Source: a bacterium (GTDB lineage: Bacteria; Patescibacteriota; Doudnabacteria; UBA920; VMFF01). From it: DNA of 54,137 nt. Under the pieces are notes generated by a model. The model made no database searches and was not told where the DNA came from. It saw only the letters and a list, made by a program, of their open reading frames with translations. The stretch covers positions 1 to 54,137 of the forward strand of contig JAJZOG010000011.1 in the NCBI GenBank assembly GCA_021811585.1, read 5' to 3'. How positions within the stretch are numbered: the stretch's first letter is position 1; each line of letters opens with the position of its first letter. Positions 3,843 through 49,103 of this stretch are shown in pieces. A program made the position numbers and the translations under genes.

Positions 3843-3936
3843 ATTTTACAGAAAAAATTTATGAAGCCGCGATTTTGTAGGCGAATTCGTGAAAAATGTA
3901 AGATTTAGAGGGTTTTTAAGTGATTTGGAAAAATGG

Positions 3937-3964
3937 TTGACAAAATGCAACTTTATGATATATT
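3937..3964 (+). promoter_or_regulatory. Sigma70-type promoter for the ORFan at 3993
   Basis: TTGACA 3937-3942, TGnTATATT 3956-3964, then AGGAGG at 3983-3988. Confidence 0.6.
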
Positions 3965-3992
3965 GAAGTTTGTCAAATTCCCAGGAGGAAAT

Positions 3993-4592
3993 ATGAGAAC
4001 CCTTTTATCTGTTGGTGTTTTGGTTGTCGTCGGAATTTTTGTGATTGGTTTAATCCTGGCGCTTGGGATTGGTTCATTACATTTAAGATATGGATTAAAC
4101 CAACAACATTCCAAAATTGGCGATATTTATGTGGTTACCCATACTGTCGCGGGATTTACGTGCACCAATTGCGACCCAAATAAAGTCGCGCGAGGCAAGG
4201 AGCCATTAATGGCGCCGACCACAAAGGTGCTGTTACCCGCAAACACTCACATAAGGGCGGCTCAAGCCCTAATGAATATAGATGGGACGACTTTCCTGCC
4301 CGCGTATGCGGCAGGACCGAATGGCATATACAACACAACCAAATTAATTTTGGTTCCAGTATCCGCCTTAGAACGAAACACGGAACCTTCACCAAGCGGA
4401 GCCGTGACTCTAGACCAAGTGCTTAAGCTTTCCCCAATACCTGCACATCCGCCGACCCATAAAATAAAAAAGCACCGCGCAGCGCCTACGGTACACCCTG
4501 TACCGTTTAATCAAGATTTGCCACAATTACAATATTGGTCCTGTATAAATTCAAACACCGTTCCTATTGAACATCATAGGAACGGTGTTTAA
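3993..4592 (+). CDS. Hypothetical N-terminally membrane-anchored protein (CxxC, Pro/Lys-rich tail, FNQDL motif)
   Basis: AGGAGG before ATG 3993; hydrophobic N-terminal helix; own promoter. Confidence 0.75.
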   Translation: MRTLLSVGVLVVVGIFVIGLILALGIGSLHLRYGLNQQHSKIGDIYVVTHTVAGFTCTNCDPNKVARGKEPLMAPTTKVLLPANTHIRAAQALMNIDGTTFLPAYAAGPNGIYNTTKLILVPVSALERNTEPSPSGAVTLDQVLKLSPIPAHPPTHKIKKHRAAPTVHPVPFNQDLPQLQYWSCINSNTVPIEHHRNGV

Positions 4593-4608: not shown

Positions 4609-7600
4609 TTATTTCTTTTCTGCCCGAATTTTCTCAAGGATTTTTTGGAAGATGAGGAGCTTTATAACCTTAATCTCATCATACTTTTCTTTATTCGTTT
4701 TTGCGTCTTGCAGCAAAGATTCAATGCGTCTTTGCAATGATGCCGCGGTTTTATCAAAGTTTCTAAAGCTTGTCATCTTAAAAGGCAAAAATCCGTGGTT
4801 TTTCAGAGCCATACTGAAAATATTAATATCCTTTTCGGGGGTTCCGGTTAATTGAATGTCCATTCTCGCAATCTCTACGAACTTGTGGTAAGGAGCAAGC
4901 TCCCTTTCAGCATGCATTTTGCCTAGTTGCTTGCTGACACGGTCAAATTTTCCTAGCACTCTTTCGCTTGTAATCATTTCCGCCAAATCCTTTAAATTAT
5001 TATCAACCGCTTTTGCATCCTTTCTATCTTTTATCTCAGCATATGGCCAATAGTTCTTTAAAGCTTCAATATCACTCTCTAACTTTCCAATTTCCACATT
5101 TGACACTGATTTAATTTTGACGTCAACAGATTTCTTACTTTCAGATCCGGTTTTTAAAACGGAATCTATTTTCTTCTCTAATTGCTTTTTTACATCTTGT
5201 TCAAAAGCTTTAATTGCCGCTTCTTGTTTGCGCTTCCTTACATTTTCTTTTGTTTCGTTTATTTGCCTGCTAATTCTATCCAGTATTTGCGAATAAACAA
5301 AAATCTTAGCAACATCTGAGACCTTTGCCCCTATCGCATAAGCATGCTCTATCCAAGAATCTATATCAGATTTAAGCATACGTGCTGCAATGCCTGGGTT
5401 TTTACGAACATAGTTAGCAAAGGAGATGTAGTTCCTTACAAACCCTTTCTGTTTATTCAAAATTTTATCCAACTCCAACAAATCCTCAGAAATGTTTCCC
5501 CGGAATGGGAAATCCATATTTGCAACTGATTCCATATCCTTGCCTGTTAACTTCCAATCCTGTTCAGCGTACGTATGCAAAACTTGTTTAATCGCATCAT
5601 TCTTTTGTTCTTCGGGACTCCTGGCTTTCTTTGCGCTATTTACCATAAATTTCTCGGCAATTGCCAAATTCGCAACTTTCTTCGCAGCTGATTTCAAATA
5701 TTCAATCGATTTACGGCTCGTGGAATACCCCGCCTCAGTTAAATATTTGTATAAAGCCCTCGAAAGTGGATCAAGTCCCGCCATAACTTCTTGCGTCTTC
5801 TTTTTTACGCCTTCTTGGGCGGCTTGCAGCTTATCCGACGTTTGTTGGACGGCTTTTGATTTTGCTTCCCGCACCTGCTGAAGAATGCTTTCCTTTTTCG
5901 AAGATTTTTCAACAGGATGAACCTGGGATGCCTGCGGCTCTTGTAATTGCGCTGAAGTTTCCAAAATCTGCGCTTTTTTTCCGGTTCGCCGCTCAAAATC
6001 TTCTTTCCACTTCTGTTGATATTTTTTCAGCCATTTCGCAAATGCCTCCCGATTTGTAATCTTTACACCGTTCGGAGTCGGTTCAAACTCCACGCCCATG
6101 CTTTCCAAGGCCTGACGTTTTGCAGGAGTATCAACAGGGCTTTTAGAAATTGTTTCTTCAAGATGGTCAATAATTTTCCGTACTTCTTTTTCATCATCAA
6201 GATTCGGCAGCGGCGTTTTTGCAAATTCCTTTGTACGCAATTCGTCGAAAGCTCCCCACTCGATTTCGGGACTCCATTGATCGAGTACATTAATTCCCTT
6301 CTCTTTAGCAGCGTTCATTCTTCGCGTTGACGTATAAATTATGGATTCTGTTCCGGTGCCGCGGATTGGCTGTGAATGTTTTTTTGTTCCCGCCCTGGCC
6401 ACGACAATTCTAAGTCCTAAATTTACATCTTCACCTTTGCCTAAGCTCGGATCGAATCCGCCCACCGCAGAAAGGATACTTGCCCTTAAGGCAGTATTGG
6501 CCCCAGAGGTTGGGATTGGCTTTTTTGCTATGCGCTCATACACAAGCGAGTTCTGTTCAAAACGCTTGTCCAAAAAGGAAGCAGGGTCTCTGGCAAAAAA
6601 CTCCGGATCCCAATCAATATGCCCCACAAAACTGTCAGCTTCCGGGTTTTTATCAAATTTATCCAAAAAATTAGAAACATACCGTGGGGAAATTCCAAGC
6701 GTATCGGCATCATTGGTTACCACTATCAACTCCGGCGCTTTTCTACCTCTGGCCATTTGCCGCATCAAAACAGCATCAGCAAGTATTCGCCTGACCTTGC
6801 CTATTACATTTTTGCCATTTTCTATTTCATCGTTCGGCAACTTTCTATGAAATACCCTGATATTAAGTTTGGGGTTATCCTTCTTAAACCTTTGTATTTC
6901 TGCCAATGTTTCTTCCGAATCCAATAATGCTCCTGTTTTTGCATGGGTTTCCGGGTTATTCACAAATAAAACTATCTCAAACAGCGAAGGGTCCAATGGT
7001 TGGCCTTTCATATCTGTTTGTGAAGTATAAGTTTCCAGTGTCCTATAAATATTTTTACTTTCCTGATGGCCGGCAACAGGTATCATTATGGACATGCGGC
7101 AACCATATTTCATTGGCGGCAGTTCCGCGGAAATTTCGCGAATCATTTTTTTATGCTCAGGCGACAATCTGTCCAAATATTGCTTTATTTCAGAATATTG
7201 GTCCAAATCAGCGTCAGGATTTTCTCGCAAAGTCCTCGATAAAACTGCCCTGAATTTTTCAAAATTCTTTTCGGTAAAAAATTGCCCATATCCTTCATAA
7301 CCATAACCGCCATAACCGTATGCGTAGGGATTTATATATGGCTCCGGTTTCGACAGAACCGGTTCCGGCGGAGTTGGCGTTGGAGACGGTGTTATGTTGG
7401 GTGTGGAATCAGGAGTGTAAGTTGGTTCAAGCGGCGTTCGGCCCATAATTGGCAGCCAAAGCGGCGGATCAATACGATAATCCGCATTATGCCCAATAAT
7501 GGTTGTGGAAAACTGTTTAATAGCCAGGCCCGGATTTTTTATTGAATTGGCGCCAACGTCTGTGGCTAAGGTTCTTATATGCTCAACGCCAGCTTTATCA

Positions 7601-10032
7601 ACTCCGGTTGTTTGCACAACTTCCGCATAAGCGCCTTTAAAAACGCTATCATTAGCTTTGAAATGATAACCGTGGGTTATGTGTTCCAGATGCACGCGCG
7701 CATCAGGGCTCAAATTTTTAAATTTTCCAAATAACAGATGCGCCAGCGGGCTGTCGTGCTTAAAAACGATTTGCCCATCATGCTGAATAGGAATTTTAAA
7801 CACATAATTCTGGGAATTGCGCGAGACGGAAACAGCCAAAGAGAGCTTGCCTTGATGCATTAATTCCTGGGCGTCCACGCTTAGCCCTGCGTGGTACGAA
7901 CCATCCGGGGTCATATGGCTGATATCGTAAACATAATCGCCGTGCGCATTAACTGCAGGCCCGCCATGGCCAGTACCCCAGAGCCGCAATTCATTTTTAT
8001 CAAAAGCTTTAGTGTCATTATCAAACCACATATCGTGCTTGATATGTTCCATATGCTGGTATGGCGCGCCGCCATGTTCTGTGCCAGCCCCAACAAGAGA
8101 CGCGTGGGTGGTATTTGTTGCTGTCATGCCGTGTTCAGCTAAAAGTCGCCGCGCGTTTTCGGCTAAATCTCCGTGTGCGTTCGCTATATGCGCAGCGACA
8201 ATCTCATTTCCACGCATTAAATTAAAATAACTGGCATGATCTTTTGTAAGAGAATAGCCAAGGGGAATTTTAAAATCATGCCCAGCGAAATTAACCTCAT
8301 GCATGGCTGGGCTCACTTTTCCCGCTTCACCGTGCAGCCATCTTACAAAGCCCCCAAGAGGAGTGTAGTGCTGGCCCACCCTTTGCGGCTTGCCGCGAAT
8401 CCAATCCAAAGCGGCGCCAATGACGCCTTCCTGATGCCCGTGGCTCAATGGCACTGTTAATAATTCCTGCGCTGCAGCTCCAATGCCAAGGCCAATCCAA
8501 AACGCTCTCGCTGCGGCTTTGCCAACCTGCTTTTGCTTCATTTTTTTGAATTCCAGGTTTTTCTTTTCCAAACCCTCTTCGCCTTCTCGCCCGTTCACAA
8601 TTATATCCCGCATCAAGTCCGCCTGTTTTTGAATTTCAAAATCAATTGGCAAATTCGCGGCGCCCGGCATGTTCTGCACCAATTCGCGCAACCTCACTTT
8701 TGCCTGTTCAAGCGCAAGCGAAAGCCGCGTATTTTCCCGCTCGGTTTTTCGCGCATCGGAATAATGGATCAGATCAATGCCATGCTGATCGCCATAGCTT
8801 ACTCTTGCTTGCACTTCGCCGGCCTGAAGCAAGGCGGCTCTGAATTCTTCTTCGCTCAAATTTTTCTGCTCGGCTTTCTGGGAAATATCCTCAAGAGCCG
8901 AGGCAAGCTCGTTTGCGCCCTTTGTTTCCGCGCGATATTGTTCCATTTCCGCGCGCCGCGGCGATTTTGCGGCTTCAAATTTTTTGCCCTTGGCCATTTC
9001 CCTGCCGTGCAAGCGGCGCTCTTCTTCCAAACGCGCGCTTTCTTTTGCCGCGGCAACAGCCGAACCCACGCCCGCAGCCACGCCAAAAGTTGACCATCCA
9101 AAAGCGCGGCTAATGCCGCTTTGCGAACCGCGAACAGCAAGCGTATATGCGATGGCCACTCCGCCAGCCAAAGTGGTTTCATTTACCCAACATCCGGCCC
9201 AGCTGTTCTTTAATTTTTCAACTATCTTATCTACCTTGTTAAAATTCGCCTCAGTGCGCACCGCGGATTTTGCCCTGCCGATTATCAAATCAAAATCCAA
9301 ATCCAAAGCATCCAGTGCCCTGCCGTGGTCAACAGCGGCTTTTGCTTCCTTGGCCATTTCCAAAATATTTGAAGCGTAGAGTTCGCCGCGGCCGATTAAT
9401 TCCTTGTTCGCGCCTTTTATTCTGGAAAAAATTCTTACCTTTTCTTCTTCGAACGCGTCCTGGTTGTTAATTTTGCCTTCAGCATAATCGCATATCAAAG
9501 CGCGCAGTTCGGCTTTTATTACAGGGTCATTAAATTCTTCCTTTTGCTCCGATTTTTTTTCATTCCCGTTTTGGCGCAGGGCATTATCGTATTCCTGGGC
9601 AAACCTTTCTATTATCGCATTCATTTCCTGCTCATGCTCAGCGGCGGAATCTGCACCAGCTCCGCTGGCAATGTTTTCTTGGGCCGCGTTTTTGCCGGCA
9701 GCGTTTTTGCCGGCAGCATTTTTTCCTACAGCGAAAAGGTTTTGGCTTTCCTTCATTTTTTTGCGCGCAGAGGCAAGCTCTCTTTGGCGATAAAACTCTC
9801 GCCAAAGGTTGTATTTCCAAACGCGCTTCGGTAAATTTTTCCAACCCTTAATTTCCGCAACGTCCGCTGTTAACTTTGCTTCTGCCGCATCCCGCGCTTC
9901 CTGTTCCAAATGATGCGAAACATCAATAACATAAAGTTTGCGCTTGCTTTTGAAGCCAGCGCCTTTGTTTGCGTTTTCCTGTTGGGGATTTTGCCCTTCT
10001 GCCTCCGGATTGTATCCAAATCTTTCAGGCAT
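4609..10032 (-). CDS. 1807-aa multidomain protein: coiled coils with hydrophobic helices, His/Gly-rich region, Pro/Thr linker, GT-A (family 2-like) glycosyltransferase, helical C-terminus
   Basis: Long ORF; SIMIPV...FEIVLFVNN...TNDAD (DxD)...GANTALR...VGGFDP...GED in about 7100-6250. Confidence 0.85.
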   Translation of the reverse strand: MPERFGYNPEAEGQNPQQENANKGAGFKSKRKLYVIDVSHHLEQEARDAAEAKLTADVAEIKGWKNLPKRVWKYNLWREFYRQRELASARKKMKESQNLFAVGKNAAGKNAAGKNAAQENIASGAGADSAAEHEQEMNAIIERFAQEYDNALRQNGNEKKSEQKEEFNDPVIKAELRALICDYAEGKINNQDAFEEEKVRIFSRIKGANKELIGRGELYASNILEMAKEAKAAVDHGRALDALDLDFDLIIGRAKSAVRTEANFNKVDKIVEKLKNSWAGCWVNETTLAGGVAIAYTLAVRGSQSGISRAFGWSTFGVAAGVGSAVAAAKESARLEEERRLHGREMAKGKKFEAAKSPRRAEMEQYRAETKGANELASALEDISQKAEQKNLSEEEFRAALLQAGEVQARVSYGDQHGIDLIHYSDARKTERENTRLSLALEQAKVRLRELVQNMPGAANLPIDFEIQKQADLMRDIIVNGREGEEGLEKKNLEFKKMKQKQVGKAAARAFWIGLGIGAAAQELLTVPLSHGHQEGVIGAALDWIRGKPQRVGQHYTPLGGFVRWLHGEAGKVSPAMHEVNFAGHDFKIPLGYSLTKDHASYFNLMRGNEIVAAHIANAHGDLAENARRLLAEHGMTATNTTHASLVGAGTEHGGAPYQHMEHIKHDMWFDNDTKAFDKNELRLWGTGHGGPAVNAHGDYVYDISHMTPDGSYHAGLSVDAQELMHQGKLSLAVSVSRNSQNYVFKIPIQHDGQIVFKHDSPLAHLLFGKFKNLSPDARVHLEHITHGYHFKANDSVFKGAYAEVVQTTGVDKAGVEHIRTLATDVGANSIKNPGLAIKQFSTTIIGHNADYRIDPPLWLPIMGRTPLEPTYTPDSTPNITPSPTPTPPEPVLSKPEPYINPYAYGYGGYGYEGYGQFFTEKNFEKFRAVLSRTLRENPDADLDQYSEIKQYLDRLSPEHKKMIREISAELPPMKYGCRMSIMIPVAGHQESKNIYRTLETYTSQTDMKGQPLDPSLFEIVLFVNNPETHAKTGALLDSEETLAEIQRFKKDNPKLNIRVFHRKLPNDEIENGKNVIGKVRRILADAVLMRQMARGRKAPELIVVTNDADTLGISPRYVSNFLDKFDKNPEADSFVGHIDWDPEFFARDPASFLDKRFEQNSLVYERIAKKPIPTSGANTALRASILSAVGGFDPSLGKGEDVNLGLRIVVARAGTKKHSQPIRGTGTESIIYTSTRRMNAAKEKGINVLDQWSPEIEWGAFDELRTKEFAKTPLPNLDDEKEVRKIIDHLEETISKSPVDTPAKRQALESMGVEFEPTPNGVKITNREAFAKWLKKYQQKWKEDFERRTGKKAQILETSAQLQEPQASQVHPVEKSSKKESILQQVREAKSKAVQQTSDKLQAAQEGVKKKTQEVMAGLDPLSRALYKYLTEAGYSTSRKSIEYLKSAAKKVANLAIAEKFMVNSAKKARSPEEQKNDAIKQVLHTYAEQDWKLTGKDMESVANMDFPFRGNISEDLLELDKILNKQKGFVRNYISFANYVRKNPGIAARMLKSDIDSWIEHAYAIGAKVSDVAKIFVYSQILDRISRQINETKENVRKRKQEAAIKAFEQDVKKQLEKKIDSVLKTGSESKKSVDVKIKSVSNVEIGKLESDIEALKNYWPYAEIKDRKDAKAVDNNLKDLAEMITSERVLGKFDRVSKQLGKMHAERELAPYHKFVEIARMDIQLTGTPEKDINIFSMALKNHGFLPFKMTSFRNFDKTAASLQRRIESLLQDAKTNKEKYDEIKVIKLLIFQKILEKIRAEKK

Positions 10033-10042
10033 GATTTTTATT

Positions 10043-10357
10043 TTATGAAAATAAATAAATTTGCCGGAAATCCATCAAAGTGGCGCCGACAAGCGCATCC
10101 AAATCCGGGATATTTTTCGCGCAAAATTCCTGGATAGAATGCGAATCTTTCGTATCCAAAATGCCGTTAAATTCATCCAGCTTTTCTTCAGGCATCTTGG
10201 CAAGGATTGCCGCGTTAATGCGGTCCTCTATCCTATCTATAAGGTCTTTTTGGACCTGGTCCAAAATATCCTTATCCAAGGCATTTAAGCCCTTTTCTTC
10301 CGTTAAGCGCCTGGCGAAATCCTCTAAAGTGGCTATTTGTTGTGTTTTTTCGCTCAT
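10043..10357 (-). CDS. Small acidic helical protein, DUF5663-like
   Basis: L..RIEDRIN..IL..MPEEKLDEF...IPDLD pattern; ends 10 nt upstream of the giant gene. Confidence 0.7.
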   Translation of the reverse strand: MSEKTQQIATLEDFARRLTEEKGLNALDKDILDQVQKDLIDRIEDRINAAILAKMPEEKLDEFNGILDTKDSHSIQEFCAKNIPDLDALVGATLMDFRQIYLFS

Positions 10358-10907: not shown

Positions 10908-11237
10908 TTAATCTTCGAAAGAAAAAGTCGAATCAATTATTTCGCTTTTCAGGTGATCCTGCTCCTGCCGGCGCAGTTCCCTTTCGCGCTCCTTCTCGCG
11001 TTCCCTTTCGCGTTCCCGCTCGCGTCCCAAATCCGCCTCTTCCTGCTTTTGCGCCTCAATTATTTTTTTATTGATTTCCTCAACGCTTGCCGTTTGCTTG
11101 TGCACCGCGCGCAAAAGCACTTCCTGATATTGCTCGGTTGTCATTATCACCAGAACCGGGTCGCCATTTTCATCAATAACAAAAAATTTTCCGCCGTCCG
11201 CCTTTGCAAGCTCGATTAATTTTTTTATGCCTTCCAT
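10908..11237 (-). CDS. Hypothetical protein with a Phd/YefM-like N-terminus and an (RE)n tract
   Basis: KFFVIDENGDPVLVIMTTEQYQ resembles the Phd/YefM fold; REREREREKERERE. Confidence 0.65.
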   Translation of the reverse strand: MEGIKKLIELAKADGGKFFVIDENGDPVLVIMTTEQYQEVLLRAVHKQTASVEEINKKIIEAQKQEEADLGREREREREREKERERELRRQEQDHLKSEIIDSTFSFED

Positions 11238-44543: not shown

Positions 44544-46436
44544 ATGAAAACAAAAAACAAACAAACCGGCTTCACTCCAATTCAACAAAGCTTCATTCCG
44601 ACGGAACAAAGCTTCAATCCAGTCCAACAAAACAGCTTCACACTAACGGAACAAAGTTCCACTCCAATTCAACAAAACGGTTTCACTCTAATTGAAATTG
44701 TGGTAAGCATAGGAATTTTCGCCATACTTCTTGTTGGCATAATCAGCGCCTACAATTTGATGGCGCGCGGGGTTCGCGCTTTTCGGGAGCAGGCAACAAT
44801 TGCCGCGCTCGCGGACCAATACCTGGAAACCGCGCGCAATCTTCCCTATTCGCAAATAGGGACAACAAGCGGCAACCCGCACGGCAACCTTCCGGACCAA
44901 ACAGACCCGGCAACAAACAGCATCAATGGCGTGAATTATCAAATTTACTATGACATTGCCTACATTGACGATCCGGCTGATGACGCCACAGATACCTATC
45001 CCAACGATTACAAACAAGTGAAAGTTTATGTAAAAAATGAAAACACAGATGCGCTTGAAAGTTTTATTACCACAATCGCGCCGCAAGGCGAAGAAAGTTT
45101 GGCTTCAGGCGGCGAATTGCAGATTTCGGTTATTAACGCGGTGGGCCAGCCTGTTGCCGGCGCTTCGGTCCAAATTACAAATACTTCCATTTCTCCAAGC
45201 ATTAATGTTACACGGACAACGGACGCAAACGGCAATTGGGATGAAGCCGGCCTGCCTGACAGCGTCAACGGCTATCATATTGTTGTCACAAAATCAGGAT
45301 ATTCCATTGACCAAACCTACCCCATAACGCCGCAAAATCCAAACCCAGTTAAACCGGATGCCACAATTTCAAACGGCCAAATTACACAGGTAAGCTTTGC
45401 CATTGATTTGCTCAGCAATCTTACGATTGAAACTTTAAACCAGAAATGTTCGGCGATTTCCGGAGTCGGCACAAATGTACAAGGCGCAAAACTGATTGGC
45501 ACAAACCCCAATATTCCGAAATTCGATAATACTTTCACTTCCGATTCCAGCGGCAGCATAAATATGAATGGGATTGAATGGGATACTTACACTCCCACGC
45601 TCACTGATCCCGCGTATATGATTTACGGCTCATCGCCAATCCAGCAAATAAGCTTACTGCCAAACACCAGCGCGCTTTTCACTCTTATATTAGGACCCGC
45701 GACCGCCAACAGTTTGCTTGTAATAGTAAAAGACGCCGGCGGCAATCCCGTGGAAGGCGCCAATGTTGATTTGCAAACCATAACTCCGGCCAGCGACACC
45801 AACCAAACAACAGGCGGAAGCGTTTGGCTGCAAAACGATTGGTCCGGCGGATTCGGACAAGCGGATTGGTCAAGCCCTTCCATGTACTACCAAGACAGCG
45901 GCACAGTAAACACCGCAACAGCCGGACAAGTGGCGCTTTCACAGGCAAGCGGCGGAGGCGGAGGCACATATTCAAGTTCCGGGTGGCTGGAGTCCTCGTC
46001 TTTTGATACCGGATCAAGCCGCACATCTTATACTACTTTGGATTGGCAGCCGACTTCCCAAAATCCTTCCACCAGCATCTCTTTCCAAATAGCGACAAAT
46101 AATGACGATAAAACCTGGAATTTTTTGGGACCAAACGGGACTACCGGCAGTTTTTACACTGTGCCCGGCACAACCATAAGTTCAGCGAACAACGGAAACC
46201 GGTATGTGCGCTACAAAGTTTATTTTTCGACAAACGACACCTCCAAAACGCCCGTACTCACGAGCGTGGGCATAAATTATGTTTCCGGATGTTTCACTCC
46301 AGGGCAAACCATTTTCCCGGGCCTCACAGCAGGGTCCAATTACAATGTTATTGTGAGCGCGACCGGATATACCACGCAAACCTTCAATAACGTGGATATT
46401 AACGGATACAATGTTTTGGATGTGACACTGCAGTAA
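44544..46436 (+). CDS. Large type IV minor pilin-like protein with carboxypeptidase-regulatory-like beta-sandwich domains
   Basis: G|FTLIE plus hydrophobic helix; GQPVAGASVQI, TTDANG, GNPVEGANVDL. Confidence 0.88.
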   Translation: MKTKNKQTGFTPIQQSFIPTEQSFNPVQQNSFTLTEQSSTPIQQNGFTLIEIVVSIGIFAILLVGIISAYNLMARGVRAFREQATIAALADQYLETARNLPYSQIGTTSGNPHGNLPDQTDPATNSINGVNYQIYYDIAYIDDPADDATDTYPNDYKQVKVYVKNENTDALESFITTIAPQGEESLASGGELQISVINAVGQPVAGASVQITNTSISPSINVTRTTDANGNWDEAGLPDSVNGYHIVVTKSGYSIDQTYPITPQNPNPVKPDATISNGQITQVSFAIDLLSNLTIETLNQKCSAISGVGTNVQGAKLIGTNPNIPKFDNTFTSDSSGSINMNGIEWDTYTPTLTDPAYMIYGSSPIQQISLLPNTSALFTLILGPATANSLLVIVKDAGGNPVEGANVDLQTITPASDTNQTTGGSVWLQNDWSGGFGQADWSSPSMYYQDSGTVNTATAGQVALSQASGGGGGTYSSSGWLESSSFDTGSSRTSYTTLDWQPTSQNPSTSISFQIATNNDDKTWNFLGPNGTTGSFYTVPGTTISSANNGNRYVRYKVYFSTNDTSKTPVLTSVGINYVSGCFTPGQTIFPGLTAGSNYNVIVSATGYTTQTFNNVDINGYNVLDVTLQ

Positions 46437-46437
46437 C

Positions 46438-46491
46438 GGGTCCAACCCAAACCCCCAACCTAATACCCCAACCTAATACCCCAACCTAAAA
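46438..46491 (+). repeat. GGGTCCAACCC-headed 13-mer repeat element, copy C
   Basis: GGGTCCAACCCAAACCCCCAACCTAATACCCCAACCTAATACCCCAACCTAAAA, 1 nt after the TAA stop. Confidence 0.9.
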
Positions 46492-46570
46492 TTTTCAGCG
46501 CCCATATTTCTCGCTTATCCAAGCCGAAAATTATCCATATTAATCAAATCATCACAAAAATTTAATAAAA

Positions 46571-47182
46571 ATGAAAGAAAAAGGATTTACATTAATAGAG
46601 GTGATTGTTTCTATAGCAATTTTTGCGCTGTTATTTACCGGGGTTGTAGAATTAGTGGGGAAAATTTTTACCCAGGCTGGCGGACAATCGCTACTTCTAA
46701 GCAACGCGGATCAGGCGCGTAAAATAGTTTTCGCCTTTGCGGATGAAATTCGGAACGCCACATACGGGAATGACGGTTCATATCCCGTCGCCGAAGCGAA
46801 CGATCAAGAAATAATTTTTTTTAGCAGTGAGCCGCAGAACCCGCAAATAGCTGATAAAATCCGTTATTACATTTCCGGAAACGCCCTGTATCGCGGAATT
46901 ACAGTACCGAGTGGGAGTCCACTTTCCTACAATGGCGCAAACGAACAAAGCACCAAAATTGAGGATACCGTCGCAAACGGGACGACGCCACTGTTTTATT
47001 ATTATGACGGAAATTATGATGGTACAACTTCGCCGCTCACGCAACCTGTAAATTTGACCCAAATTAGATTTATCAAAATAAATATGGTAATTCCCAATCC
47101 TGCCGGCACGCAAACAAACAATACTTTCCCGATAACAGGAGGGGCAACTCTCAGAAATTTAAAGACAAATTTAGGCGATTAA
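46571..47182 (+). CDS. Type IV minor pilin/pseudopilin (PilW/GspJ-like)
   Basis: MKEKG|FTLIEVIVSIAIF; C-terminal LRNL. Confidence 0.9.
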   Translation: MKEKGFTLIEVIVSIAIFALLFTGVVELVGKIFTQAGGQSLLLSNADQARKIVFAFADEIRNATYGNDGSYPVAEANDQEIIFFSSEPQNPQIADKIRYYISGNALYRGITVPSGSPLSYNGANEQSTKIEDTVANGTTPLFYYYDGNYDGTTSPLTQPVNLTQIRFIKINMVIPNPAGTQTNNTFPITGGATLRNLKTNLGD

Positions 47183-47186
47183 TTAA

Positions 47187-48668
47187 ATGAAAATTAAATT
47201 TAACAAAAATAAAATAAAAACTAAAGCCAAAGCTGCCAAAAACTGCCAAACCAATATTCAGGTTAGGGGTTCAGGTCGGGGGTTCAGGTCGGGGGTTTGG
47301 GTTGGACCCCAATGCGGAAGCATGCTCATCTATCTGGTCGTCATTATTTTTATTTTTTCCTTGGTGATGCTCCCCATTTTGAGCAACATCGTCAAAGAAA
47401 TGCAGGTTCTGCGATCTTCAACTTACCGCGAAGAAGCGCTGCAAATCGCCGACGCCGGCGTAAATTATTACCAATGGCACCTCGCGCATTTTCCCACGGA
47501 TTATCAAGACGGCACGAACGCGCCGGGCCCATACGTGCACAATTATGTAGACACATCAACCCAGCAAACCATCGGCGAATTCAGTTTAAGCATCACCCCG
47601 CCTCTCGCTGGCTCCACAATCGTCACAATCATATCCACGGGCTGGACAAACAGCGATCCAAATATTAAAAGAACAGTAACCGCGCGCTACGGAATTCCCT
47701 CTCTGGCGCGCTACGCATTCCTCAGCAACGATGTTGTCTGGATAGGCAGCCAGGAAAATGTCTCGGGCACGCTCATGTCCAACAACGGCGTTCGCTTTGA
47801 CGGCACTACAAACGCGCCGGTTGAATCGGCAAAATCAACCTACACGTGCCCTGCTTCCCAGGGAACTCCATGCCCGGCAACTGAAAACGGCGTTTGGGGC
47901 GCAGGCAATTCAAATTTCTGGCAATATCCCGTTCCTGCCGTTGATTTCTCCAGCTTAACCGCAACAATGGCAAACCTGCAAAACCTGGCGCAAAGCGGCG
48001 GAATATTTTTGCCGCCTTCAAACGCACAGGGCTATTCCCTGGTTTTCAACAGCGACGGCACTGTGAGCGTCTACAAAGTTACCAGCTTGCAAGGCAATCC
48101 CCAAGGATGGGATGTCTACGGCAGGCCTCAACACCAGAACACAGATTACAACAACAGGACGCTTCTTTTTACAGACCCAATCCCATCCAACGGAATAATT
48201 TATGTCGAAGATACAACTTGGGTTGAAGGCACGGTAAACGGCCGCGCAACGGTTGCCGCGGGGATGCTGCCGTACAATCCGAATTCATCTCCTTCAATTT
48301 ATATTCCCAACAGCATAACCTATGCGGCAAAAGACGGCTCAGATGTCCTTGGGTTGATCGCCCAAAACAATCTTGCGCTCACATACCACGCCCCGGCGAG
48401 CATGGAAGTTGATGCTGTCCTTGTTGCTGAAAATGGGAGCGTACAATTCTTTTATTACCCCGACAATGTTAAAAATACGCTCACGGTTTTCGGTTCCATA
48501 ATCACTTACGGGCAATGGACGTGGACCTGGCTAAATGGCCAAGGCCAGCCGCAAGCAGGATATGAAACCACTTATGATACTTATGATGCAAATTTGCTAT
48601 ACAGTCCTCCGCCAAGCTTTCCGCTTTCAAATTCAGGGTATCAACTCTTAAGCTGGTCAAGCAATTAA
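47187..48668 (+). CDS. PilX/GspK-like minor pilin with a large C-terminal domain
   Basis: G|SMLIYLVVII lacking Glu5; EEALQIADAGVNYY; last pilin of the cluster. Confidence 0.8.
   Translation: MKIKFNKNKIKTKAKAAKNCQTNIQVRGSGRGFRSGVWVGPQCGSMLIYLVVIIFIFSLVMLPILSNIVKEMQVLRSSTYREEALQIADAGVNYYQWHLAHFPTDYQDGTNAPGPYVHNYVDTSTQQTIGEFSLSITPPLAGSTIVTIISTGWTNSDPNIKRTVTARYGIPSLARYAFLSNDVVWIGSQENVSGTLMSNNGVRFDGTTNAPVESAKSTYTCPASQGTPCPATENGVWGAGNSNFWQYPVPAVDFSSLTATMANLQNLAQSGGIFLPPSNAQGYSLVFNSDGTVSVYKVTSLQGNPQGWDVYGRPQHQNTDYNNRTLLFTDPIPSNGIIYVEDTTWVEGTVNGRATVAAGMLPYNPNSSPSIYIPNSITYAAKDGSDVLGLIAQNNLALTYHAPASMEVDAVLVAENGSVQFFYYPDNVKNTLTVFGSIITYGQWTWTWLNGQGQPQAGYETTYDTYDANLLYSPPPSFPLSNSGYQLLSWSSN
47257..47310 (-). 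repeat. GGGTCCAACCC-headed 13-mer repeat element, copy D (inside the pilin leader coding region)
   Basis: Plus strand TTCAGGTTAGGGG TTCAGGTCGGGGG TTCAGGTCGGGGG TTTGGGTTGGACCCC. Confidence 0.88.
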
Positions 48669-48704
48669 ACGAAAATAATTCAAGAAATTAATTAGATACG
48701 CTCC

Positions 48705-49103
48705 ATGAAAACTCTCCAACCAATCCAGTCGACAAATTTTAATAATTCCGCGCTCCAGCCGCTTCCTTTTAATATCGTTCCAAATATTTCGGGAAATATA
48801 AACTACACGGCGCCAGGCAGTTCAAACCAAAGTGCAGGCGCTACCGGATCGGGCACTTCCGGCTCGGGCTCGGGCGCAACAACCGGCTCAAGCGCAACCG
48901 GCGCAGGAAACGGGATTTCGGGCGCTCAAATGCAAAATGAAAATTCCGGGAATGCACAGCAAACGGCAAATTCCGCTGCCGCGGAAATTAAAAATCTAAG
49001 CAGTGCGATAAAAAAACCCGCCAACTATCCTTGGATCATAATAGGGCTTATGGCAGCTCTTTTGATTCTCGCCTATATTTTGAAGAAAATCGAAAAAAAA
49101 TAG
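48705..49103 (+). CDS. Gly/Ser/Thr-rich protein with a C-terminal membrane anchor
   Basis: Low-complexity linker; YPWIIIGLMAALLILAYILKK. Confidence 0.7.
   Translation: MKTLQPIQSTNFNNSALQPLPFNIVPNISGNINYTAPGSSNQSAGATGSGTSGSGSGATTGSSATGAGNGISGAQMQNENSGNAQQTANSAAAEIKNLSSAIKKPANYPWIIIGLMAALLILAYILKKIEKK

Follow-up and report, generated by a model that had tools for sequence, protein, structure and literature searches.

The window analysed here, a 54,137-nucleotide stretch of a Patescibacteria genome, contains a gene for an 1807-residue protein directly preceded by a gene for a small acidic protein. What would such a pair do for an episymbiont? The original prediction was that the large protein is a glycosyltransferase (GT) effector directed at a host, with the acidic protein as its chaperone or immunity factor. 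The 1807-residue ORF without a classical signal peptide and the small acidic upstream partner were both confirmed, every sequence motif quoted in the prediction was found in the protein, and the setting in an episymbiont lineage (Patescibacteria) was supported.

The two-gene locus and its conserved carrier

The stop codon of the DUF5663 gene lies 10 bp ahead of the ATG of the giant gene (Table 1), and the pair is flanked by two genes that we take, from their sequences, to be fusA and tuf. The genome is about 0.75 Mb, and both the giant gene and its partner are single-copy. The partner has a pI of 4.6 and matched PF18908 in the Pfam scan with an E value of 1.6e-8 (35.4 bits vs a cut-off of 23.7); the Pfam entry PF18908 (DUF5663) records no function. 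A 219-residue ORF with a hydrophobic N-terminal segment (3933-4592, forward strand) converges with the giant gene 16 bp away and has no Pfam match. A 109-residue ORF after the presumed fusA (10908-11237, reverse strand) contains an (ER)n run, its only match being a weak one to FYDLN_acid (E=0.007). Type IV pilin-like N-methylation motifs occur in genes at 44544-49103 (forward strand); Ig-like and carboxypeptidase-regulatory-like domains are fused to one of these.

Table 1. Features of the DUF5663-carrier locus, in window positions.
Feature	Positions	Strand	Remarks
DUF5663 (PF18908) small acidic gene	10043..10357	(-)	104 aa from ATG 10357; 107 aa from TTG 10366
Carrier-cargo giant gene (P0001)	4609..10032	(-)	1807 aa; no signal peptide; single copy in genome
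Helical N-terminal half of carrier, residues 28-570	8323..9951	(-)	Kept across family; helical in AF2 model
Gly/Ala-rich weakly hydrophobic hairpin, residues 282-331	9040..9189	(-)	
Second Gly/Ala-rich hydrophobic helix, residues 503-531	8440..8526	(-)	Near-invariant G514, G518, Q522, E523
Beta-rich carrier domain, residues ~575-850	7483..8310	(-)	AF2 strands 577-848; profiles M1/M2
Junction motif PPxxxPxxGRxPLE, residues 857-869	7426..7464	(-)	Carrier end, cargo exchange point
Pro-rich and Tyr/Gly-rich linker, residues 870-924	7261..7425	(-)	From sequence
GT-A (GT2-like) cargo, residues 925-1345	5998..7260	(-)	
Variable AT-rich, all-helical basic tail, residues 1346-1807	4609..5997	(-)	

The giant protein consists of three parts: a conserved carrier (residues 28-870), a fixed junction motif and an exchangeable cargo. 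The AF2 model of residues 1-880 had a mean pLDDT of 83.7, with low confidence at hairpin residues 293-313 in this monomer. For the predicted N-terminal coiled coils, a crude scan found four heptad-like stretches, but the region is otherwise mostly a helical bundle in the AF2 model. The predicted Gly/Ala hydrophobic helices are present but weak, with a 19-residue hydropathy of 1.0-1.3 here and family medians of 1.24-1.44; values above 1.6 occurred in just 4-24% of about 83 family rows. Because of this weak hydropathy, they are not ordinary transmembrane anchors. The His-rich region that had been pointed out (8-11% His here) marks the beta-rich domain, but the His content is specific to this member, the family median being 3-4%. 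The carrier matched no Pfam family and had no clear fold match, and neither the carrier nor DUF5663 had a significant sequence match to solved structures. No repeat or autoprotease domain was detected in the giant protein by Pfam, and none of the 161 carrier proteins had a signal-like N-terminus. Profile search showed no relation between the carrier and the genome's longest ORF, which has 3850 residues (G000 C7:28445-40051).

Searching with residues 1-900 gave 26 proteins, and a profile of 15 carriers matched 1364 clusters at 50% identity. The profile matched 30 of 401 Patescibacteria genomes, and a single-protein query found the carrier in one of nine other genomes of the same taxonomic family, low and patchy counts that are partly due to incomplete genomes. 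GT patterns led to 55 named loci: 33 with Patescibacteria names, 13 titled uncultured Gammaproteobacteria, five from unnamed bacteria, two titled Planctomycetales and two with archaeal titles. The archaeal loci (L129 and L133) and one of the Planctomycetales loci had the GT clade and no detected carrier, and the other Planctomycetales locus had a weak carrier match. In records titled Planctomycetales, open-ended ORFs of 3912 and 5168 residues (L140:2-11737 and L147:3-15506) carry this GT clade. The insertion site varies: seven loci, all of one family, have the genes ahead of ftsZ, and others have them elsewhere. In an order-level relative, long ORFs and DUF5663 are flanked by a corA-like gene on one side and a coupling ATPase gene on the other; this genome has no genes inserted at that site. 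At L192:2496-6059, an intein interrupts gyrB. Our literature search found no description of the carrier family, though supplements might still contain one, and a full-text search for DUF5663 returned no papers.

Exchange of cargo and tail behind the junction motif

For the cargo census, 161 of 168 database proteins were kept (a full carrier followed by at least 150 residues) and seven were dropped; the proteins compared are the best-scoring 12% of the carrier family and not a random sample. GT-A cargo was found in 107 of the 161, and the other 54 cargos formed 22 BLAST clusters. These included 11 GT9-like GT-B cargos, 11 of one unknown type, three HExxH zincin-like cargos, a seven-member cluster with five DHH motifs and one metallophosphoesterase-like motif, and two HPD J-domains below the Pfam cut-off. 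The names of the DHH, zincin-like, metallophosphoesterase-like and J-domain motifs are assignments that we assume.

The junction motif was present in 130 of 154 full-length carriers, and carrier-matched pairs lose identity at the motif. P0136 (GT-A) and P0141 (GT-B), whose GT folds differ, share 96-100% identity in each stretch of 50 residues from 1 to 500 and 54-98% over 501-800; the motif ends at residue 818, and past residue 850 identity is 12-38%. On a FastTree carrier tree built from the best 150 of the 1364 matches and 26 earlier ones, the GT-B label required 11 changes for 11 rows and the GT-A label 30 changes, 25 of them forced by starred branches. As judged from these sequences, the cargo is swapped between relatives at a fixed junction. 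The 54 non-GT-A cargos and the matched-carrier pair bear out the expectation of a conserved N-terminus with variable C-termini; the architecture is not invariant, the cargo having been exchanged repeatedly.

In the 1807-residue protein, the predicted GT-A domain with NDAD at about 7100-6250 holds for the fold and the intact DxD, but the domain is longer (nt 7260-5998). Its motifs are NDAD at residues 1107-1110 (nt 6714), ED at 1201-1202, RR at 1237-1238 and QW at 1252-1253. The DxD and catalytic-base aspartates are well kept (D1108 in 68/71, D1110 in 71/71 and D1202 in 65/71), and at least two Tyr occur in 101 of 106 GT linkers. The domain missed the Pfam GT2 cut-off (PF13632, 25.6 bits vs 27). 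In the structural comparison, its nearest folds were GT2 glycan enzymes, namely SpsA, TarS, TarP, chitin synthase and hyaluronan synthase. The GT cargo is classed, on sequence, as a divergent GT2-like clade. By analogy with such folds, its acceptor may be a glycan or lipid carrier and not a protein.

The AT-rich tail had been taken for a swapped module. The spot counts behind that proposal (19 G+C of 60 at 5041-5100 and 32 of 60 at 8941-9000) are exact. With a GC of 0.374, the tail stands at the 0.4th percentile among the genome's 227 coding windows, and amino-acid content (expected GC 0.417) accounts for this low value in part only. GC3 is low in both the tail (0.377) and the GT (0.394); that of the N-terminal half, 0.50, is typical. 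Among the segments compared, the tail resembles only that of P0003. Elsewhere in the family, the tails behind the GT are shorter than 100 residues in 48 of 97 proteins and at least 200 residues long in 30 of 97, and the 52 tails compared made up 23 clusters. The tail types include Ser/Thr kinase (nine tails, plus P0009, P0025 and P0049), PP2C, APH-like kinase, L,D-transpeptidase and a second GT. The L,D-transpeptidase tail of P0014 lies behind a hydrophobic segment and would act outside a membrane. The proposal of a swapped tail is supported.

GT genes that lack a carrier come after the giant gene in L121, L139 and L151, and after a further giant gene bearing a GT in L127 and L144; no such downstream gene was found in this window. 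Tandem modules occur in L080 and L182. The array at L182:1652-20000 consists of tandem DUF5663 genes and long ORFs with identical N-termini and differing cargo, on a different carrier; the cargo includes a GT-A of this clade and a phosphoesterase-like domain, and the array is directly upstream of PrgI and VirB4 genes. A conserved 335-residue ORF follows the giant gene at L110:7121-8131, L112:12675-13682 and L150:10364-11365, and one tail family is common to all three loci.

The DUF5663 partner and type IV secretion genes

The proposed linkage to DUF5663 was recovered in 65 of 69 testable loci, where DUF5663 lies upstream of the carrier, mostly within 50 bp; in two of the four misses it lies downstream. 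The partner is kept whatever the cargo (47/48 GT loci and 14/16 non-GT loci). In pairwise comparisons over 41 loci, partner identity correlated with carrier identity (rho 0.70; 0.69-0.73 for carrier residues 28-500) more than with GT identity (0.23), with partial values of 0.68 vs -0.03, a pattern that could arise by physical linkage alone because the partner is nearest the carrier N-terminus. The 38 co-oriented ORFs downstream, from 64 testable loci, included no cargo-linked immunity-like small-protein family. Since the partner stays upstream as the cargo changes and diverges in step with the carrier and not with the GT, it appears chaperone-like, and the immunity-factor half of the original prediction is not supported. 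DUF5663 is likely a chaperone or adaptor of the carrier.

DUF5663 is spread more widely than the carrier, being found in 80 of 401 genomes of the phylum and in none of 14 control genomes. In 24 of the 40 DUF5663 loci that have no carrier beside them, a different long ORF in the same orientation is the neighbour. These long ORFs are not detectably homologous to the carrier, and 20 of the 24, some partly scanned, had no Pfam match other than a weak phosphoesterase match and the GT2-TPR gene of L182. A Gly/Ala hydrophobic helix was found in 17 of the 24, compared with 10 of 90 control ORFs, at a threshold set after the data were seen. The other 16 of the 40 loci have no such long neighbour, and many lie between genes that we read from sequence as infB and fmt. 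In L165-L178, L206, L207, L213, L214 and L216, DUF5663 follows the presumed infB (IF-2) and is convergent with what we take to be fmt/def; at some of these loci, an orphan of 500-650 residues, usually with a Gly/Ala hairpin, stands between infB and DUF5663. The same layout is seen in SEML1_0161-0163 of S. epibionticum. In the Tn-seq tables of that organism, the orphan SEML1_0161 and the adjacent DUF5663 gene SEML1_0162 are listed as essential and SEML1_0163 as growth-defective, and a third DUF5663 gene with small neighbours as non-essential (PMC10633639 Tables S1-S2); in Table S2 the name DUF5663 appears merely as an annotation. Polarity and obligate host dependence limit the meaning of this essentiality, SEML1_0161 being likened to those orphans by gene layout, and it would suit a structural or housekeeping function no less than an effector.

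The genome encodes PrgI and VirB4 on contig C7 and four VirD4-like coupling ATPases (C5, C6, C7 and C15 of the 0.75-Mb G000; L218). The VirD4-like gene on C5 is preceded by a 137-residue acidic ORF, as are copies in L011, L081, L084, L204 and L205. Of the 77 carrier loci, 7 had a co-oriented VirD4-like ATPase gene within 2.5 kb, compared with 11 of 352 control ORFs, and the corresponding p=0.01 is overstated because the seven loci include relatives and one weak carrier match. The coupling ATPase is absent nearby in the remaining 70 of the 77 carrier loci, this window among them. Other DUF5663 loci adjoin VirD4-like, VirB4 or PrgI genes (L180, L182, L183, L194 and L201). The Patescibacteria type IV secretion system (T4SS) is described as essential in the one genetically tractable species and without a relaxase, and as one that may export proteins (PMC10633639); protein export is likewise suspected in PMC12857230. 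Our literature search found no named substrate of this system. Toward the question of how Patescibacteria live off their hosts, the carrier family offers concrete candidate T4SS substrates.

Interpretation and comparison with known systems

We propose that the two-gene module encodes a chaperoned, T4SS-delivered effector that modifies the host, a reading that we hold to be evenly poised between right and wrong. DUF5663 would bind the N-terminal half of the carrier and shield its Gly/Ala hydrophobic hairpin, and the complex would be passed to a VirD4-like coupling ATPase. The hairpin would then insert in the host membrane and hold the cargo on the cytoplasmic face, where nucleotide sugars and ATP would be available, and the GT may modify a host envelope glycan or a lipid-linked precursor. 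As a host modulator and not a self-toxic poison, such a GT would not need a cognate immunity gene. A broader version of this proposal, which we regard as somewhat doubtful, is that DUF5663 is a phylum-wide chaperone marking Patescibacteria T4SS substrates, with the carrier as a modular effector platform inside bacterial hosts. If so, DUF5663 would escort several unrelated hairpin giants into the host membrane, and the carrier family would install GTs, kinases, phosphatases, proteases and J-domains in the hosts, a Legionella-like arsenal aimed at bacteria.

The folds of the cargo count against a host effector, however, since GT2 and GT9 folds build a bacterium's own envelope elsewhere. It is unlikely, but deserves weight, that the carrier docks on the inner membrane face of the epibiont itself as a scaffold with DUF5663 as a subunit, so that GT-A/GT-B swaps would vary the epibiont's surface glycan in evasion of phage or host defence and the kinase and phosphatase tails would regulate. 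Surface-glycan genes are also under diversifying selection, and the GT2-like (SpsA, TarS, TarP, synthases) and GT9-like cargos, the missing signal peptide, the single gene copy and the lack of a conserved immunity-like gene among the 38 downstream ORFs of 64 loci all agree with this. On the other hand, the flanking neighbours listed are translation and division genes and not glycan clusters, the zincin-like, DHH, J-domain and metallophosphoesterase-like cargos have no common role in glycan synthesis, and DUF5663 is found beside T4SS genes and hairpin proteins of other kinds as well. A family of 1364 clusters that lacks a Pfam entry, and whose carrier has no clear fold match, would be notable in this case too.

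The conserved, weakly hydrophobic hairpins, and the hairpin-bearing long ORFs beside DUF5663 in many lineages, would also suit a host-contact or feeding apparatus, in which the hairpin would serve, like a translocator, as conduit or anchor within the host membrane, with the enzymes as accessories at the contact site. SEML1_0161 and its DUF5663 neighbour SEML1_0162 being called essential in the Tn-seq table (PMC10633639 Table S1) is in line with this. We nevertheless think such an apparatus improbable, because the carrier family was found in just 30 of 401 genomes and shows no detectable homology to the proteins encoded beside DUF5663 elsewhere. A released, self-translocating polymorphic toxin against competing bacteria, processed at the junction motif, is highly improbable: the carrier-junction-cargo layout and the downstream orphan cargo genes may recall Rhs/CdiA, but there are no cognate immunity genes changing with the cargo, the partner follows the carrier, and neither a signal peptide nor a repeat or autoprotease domain turned up.

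Besides candidate substrates, the family supplies DUF5663 as a simple genomic marker, and a junction motif. The essential orphan and DUF5663 genes listed for S. epibionticum make the idea testable with existing genetics (PMC10633639 Table S1).

Polymorphic toxin systems such as Rhs, CdiA and LXG combine a conserved N-terminal carrier, a junction motif, recombined enzymatic C-termini and downstream orphan cargo. The carrier family shares with them the conserved N-terminus, the junction motif and the recombined C-terminal enzymes. Unlike them, it has a constant partner upstream and no cargo-specific immunity gene, its carrier matches no Pfam family, and its cargo is mostly transferases and kinases. 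By this comparison, the module would behave like a polymorphic effector with a chaperone, without the immunity gene of polymorphic toxins.

Among GT2 enzymes, SpsA (1h7l), TarS (5tze), TarP (6h1j), chitin synthase (8k52) and hyaluronan synthase (8smm) are 12-18% identical to the cargo GT, which differs in having no multi-pass membrane channel and in being fused to a carrier. In the large clostridial-type glucosylating toxins of family GT44, the GT is N-terminal, with autoprotease and delivery domains after it, whereas here it is central (residues 925-1345) behind the carrier; tested for a GT44-type catalytic domain, the GT cargo had its best structural matches to GT2 enzymes, and Pfam found no protease domain in the giant protein. 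The giant multi-enzyme proteins of Omnitrophota, as far as the cited texts describe them, belong to host-associated bacteria, carry glycosyltransferases, kinases and peptidases, and mostly have many domains and true transmembrane helices or signal peptides (PMC12419801, 10.64898/2026.06.07.730766). They resemble the present proteins in size and enzyme content, and the same GT clade occurs in the open-ended ORFs of 3900-5200 residues in L140 and L147; the carrier family differs from them, so described, in that a single carrier is joined to one main cargo and has a partner of its own.

The T6SS Eag/TMD effectors and the T3SS class II chaperone-translocator pairs are chaperoned, membrane-inserting substrates. 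CagF-CagA of the Cag T4SS is, in the text cited, a chaperone-substrate pair (PMC12857230). With all three the present locus shares a small acidic gene directly upstream of a gene for a large protein. At the level of genes, the giant protein is also like chaperoned secretion substrates in lacking a signal peptide and in carrying weak Gly/Ala hydrophobic helices.
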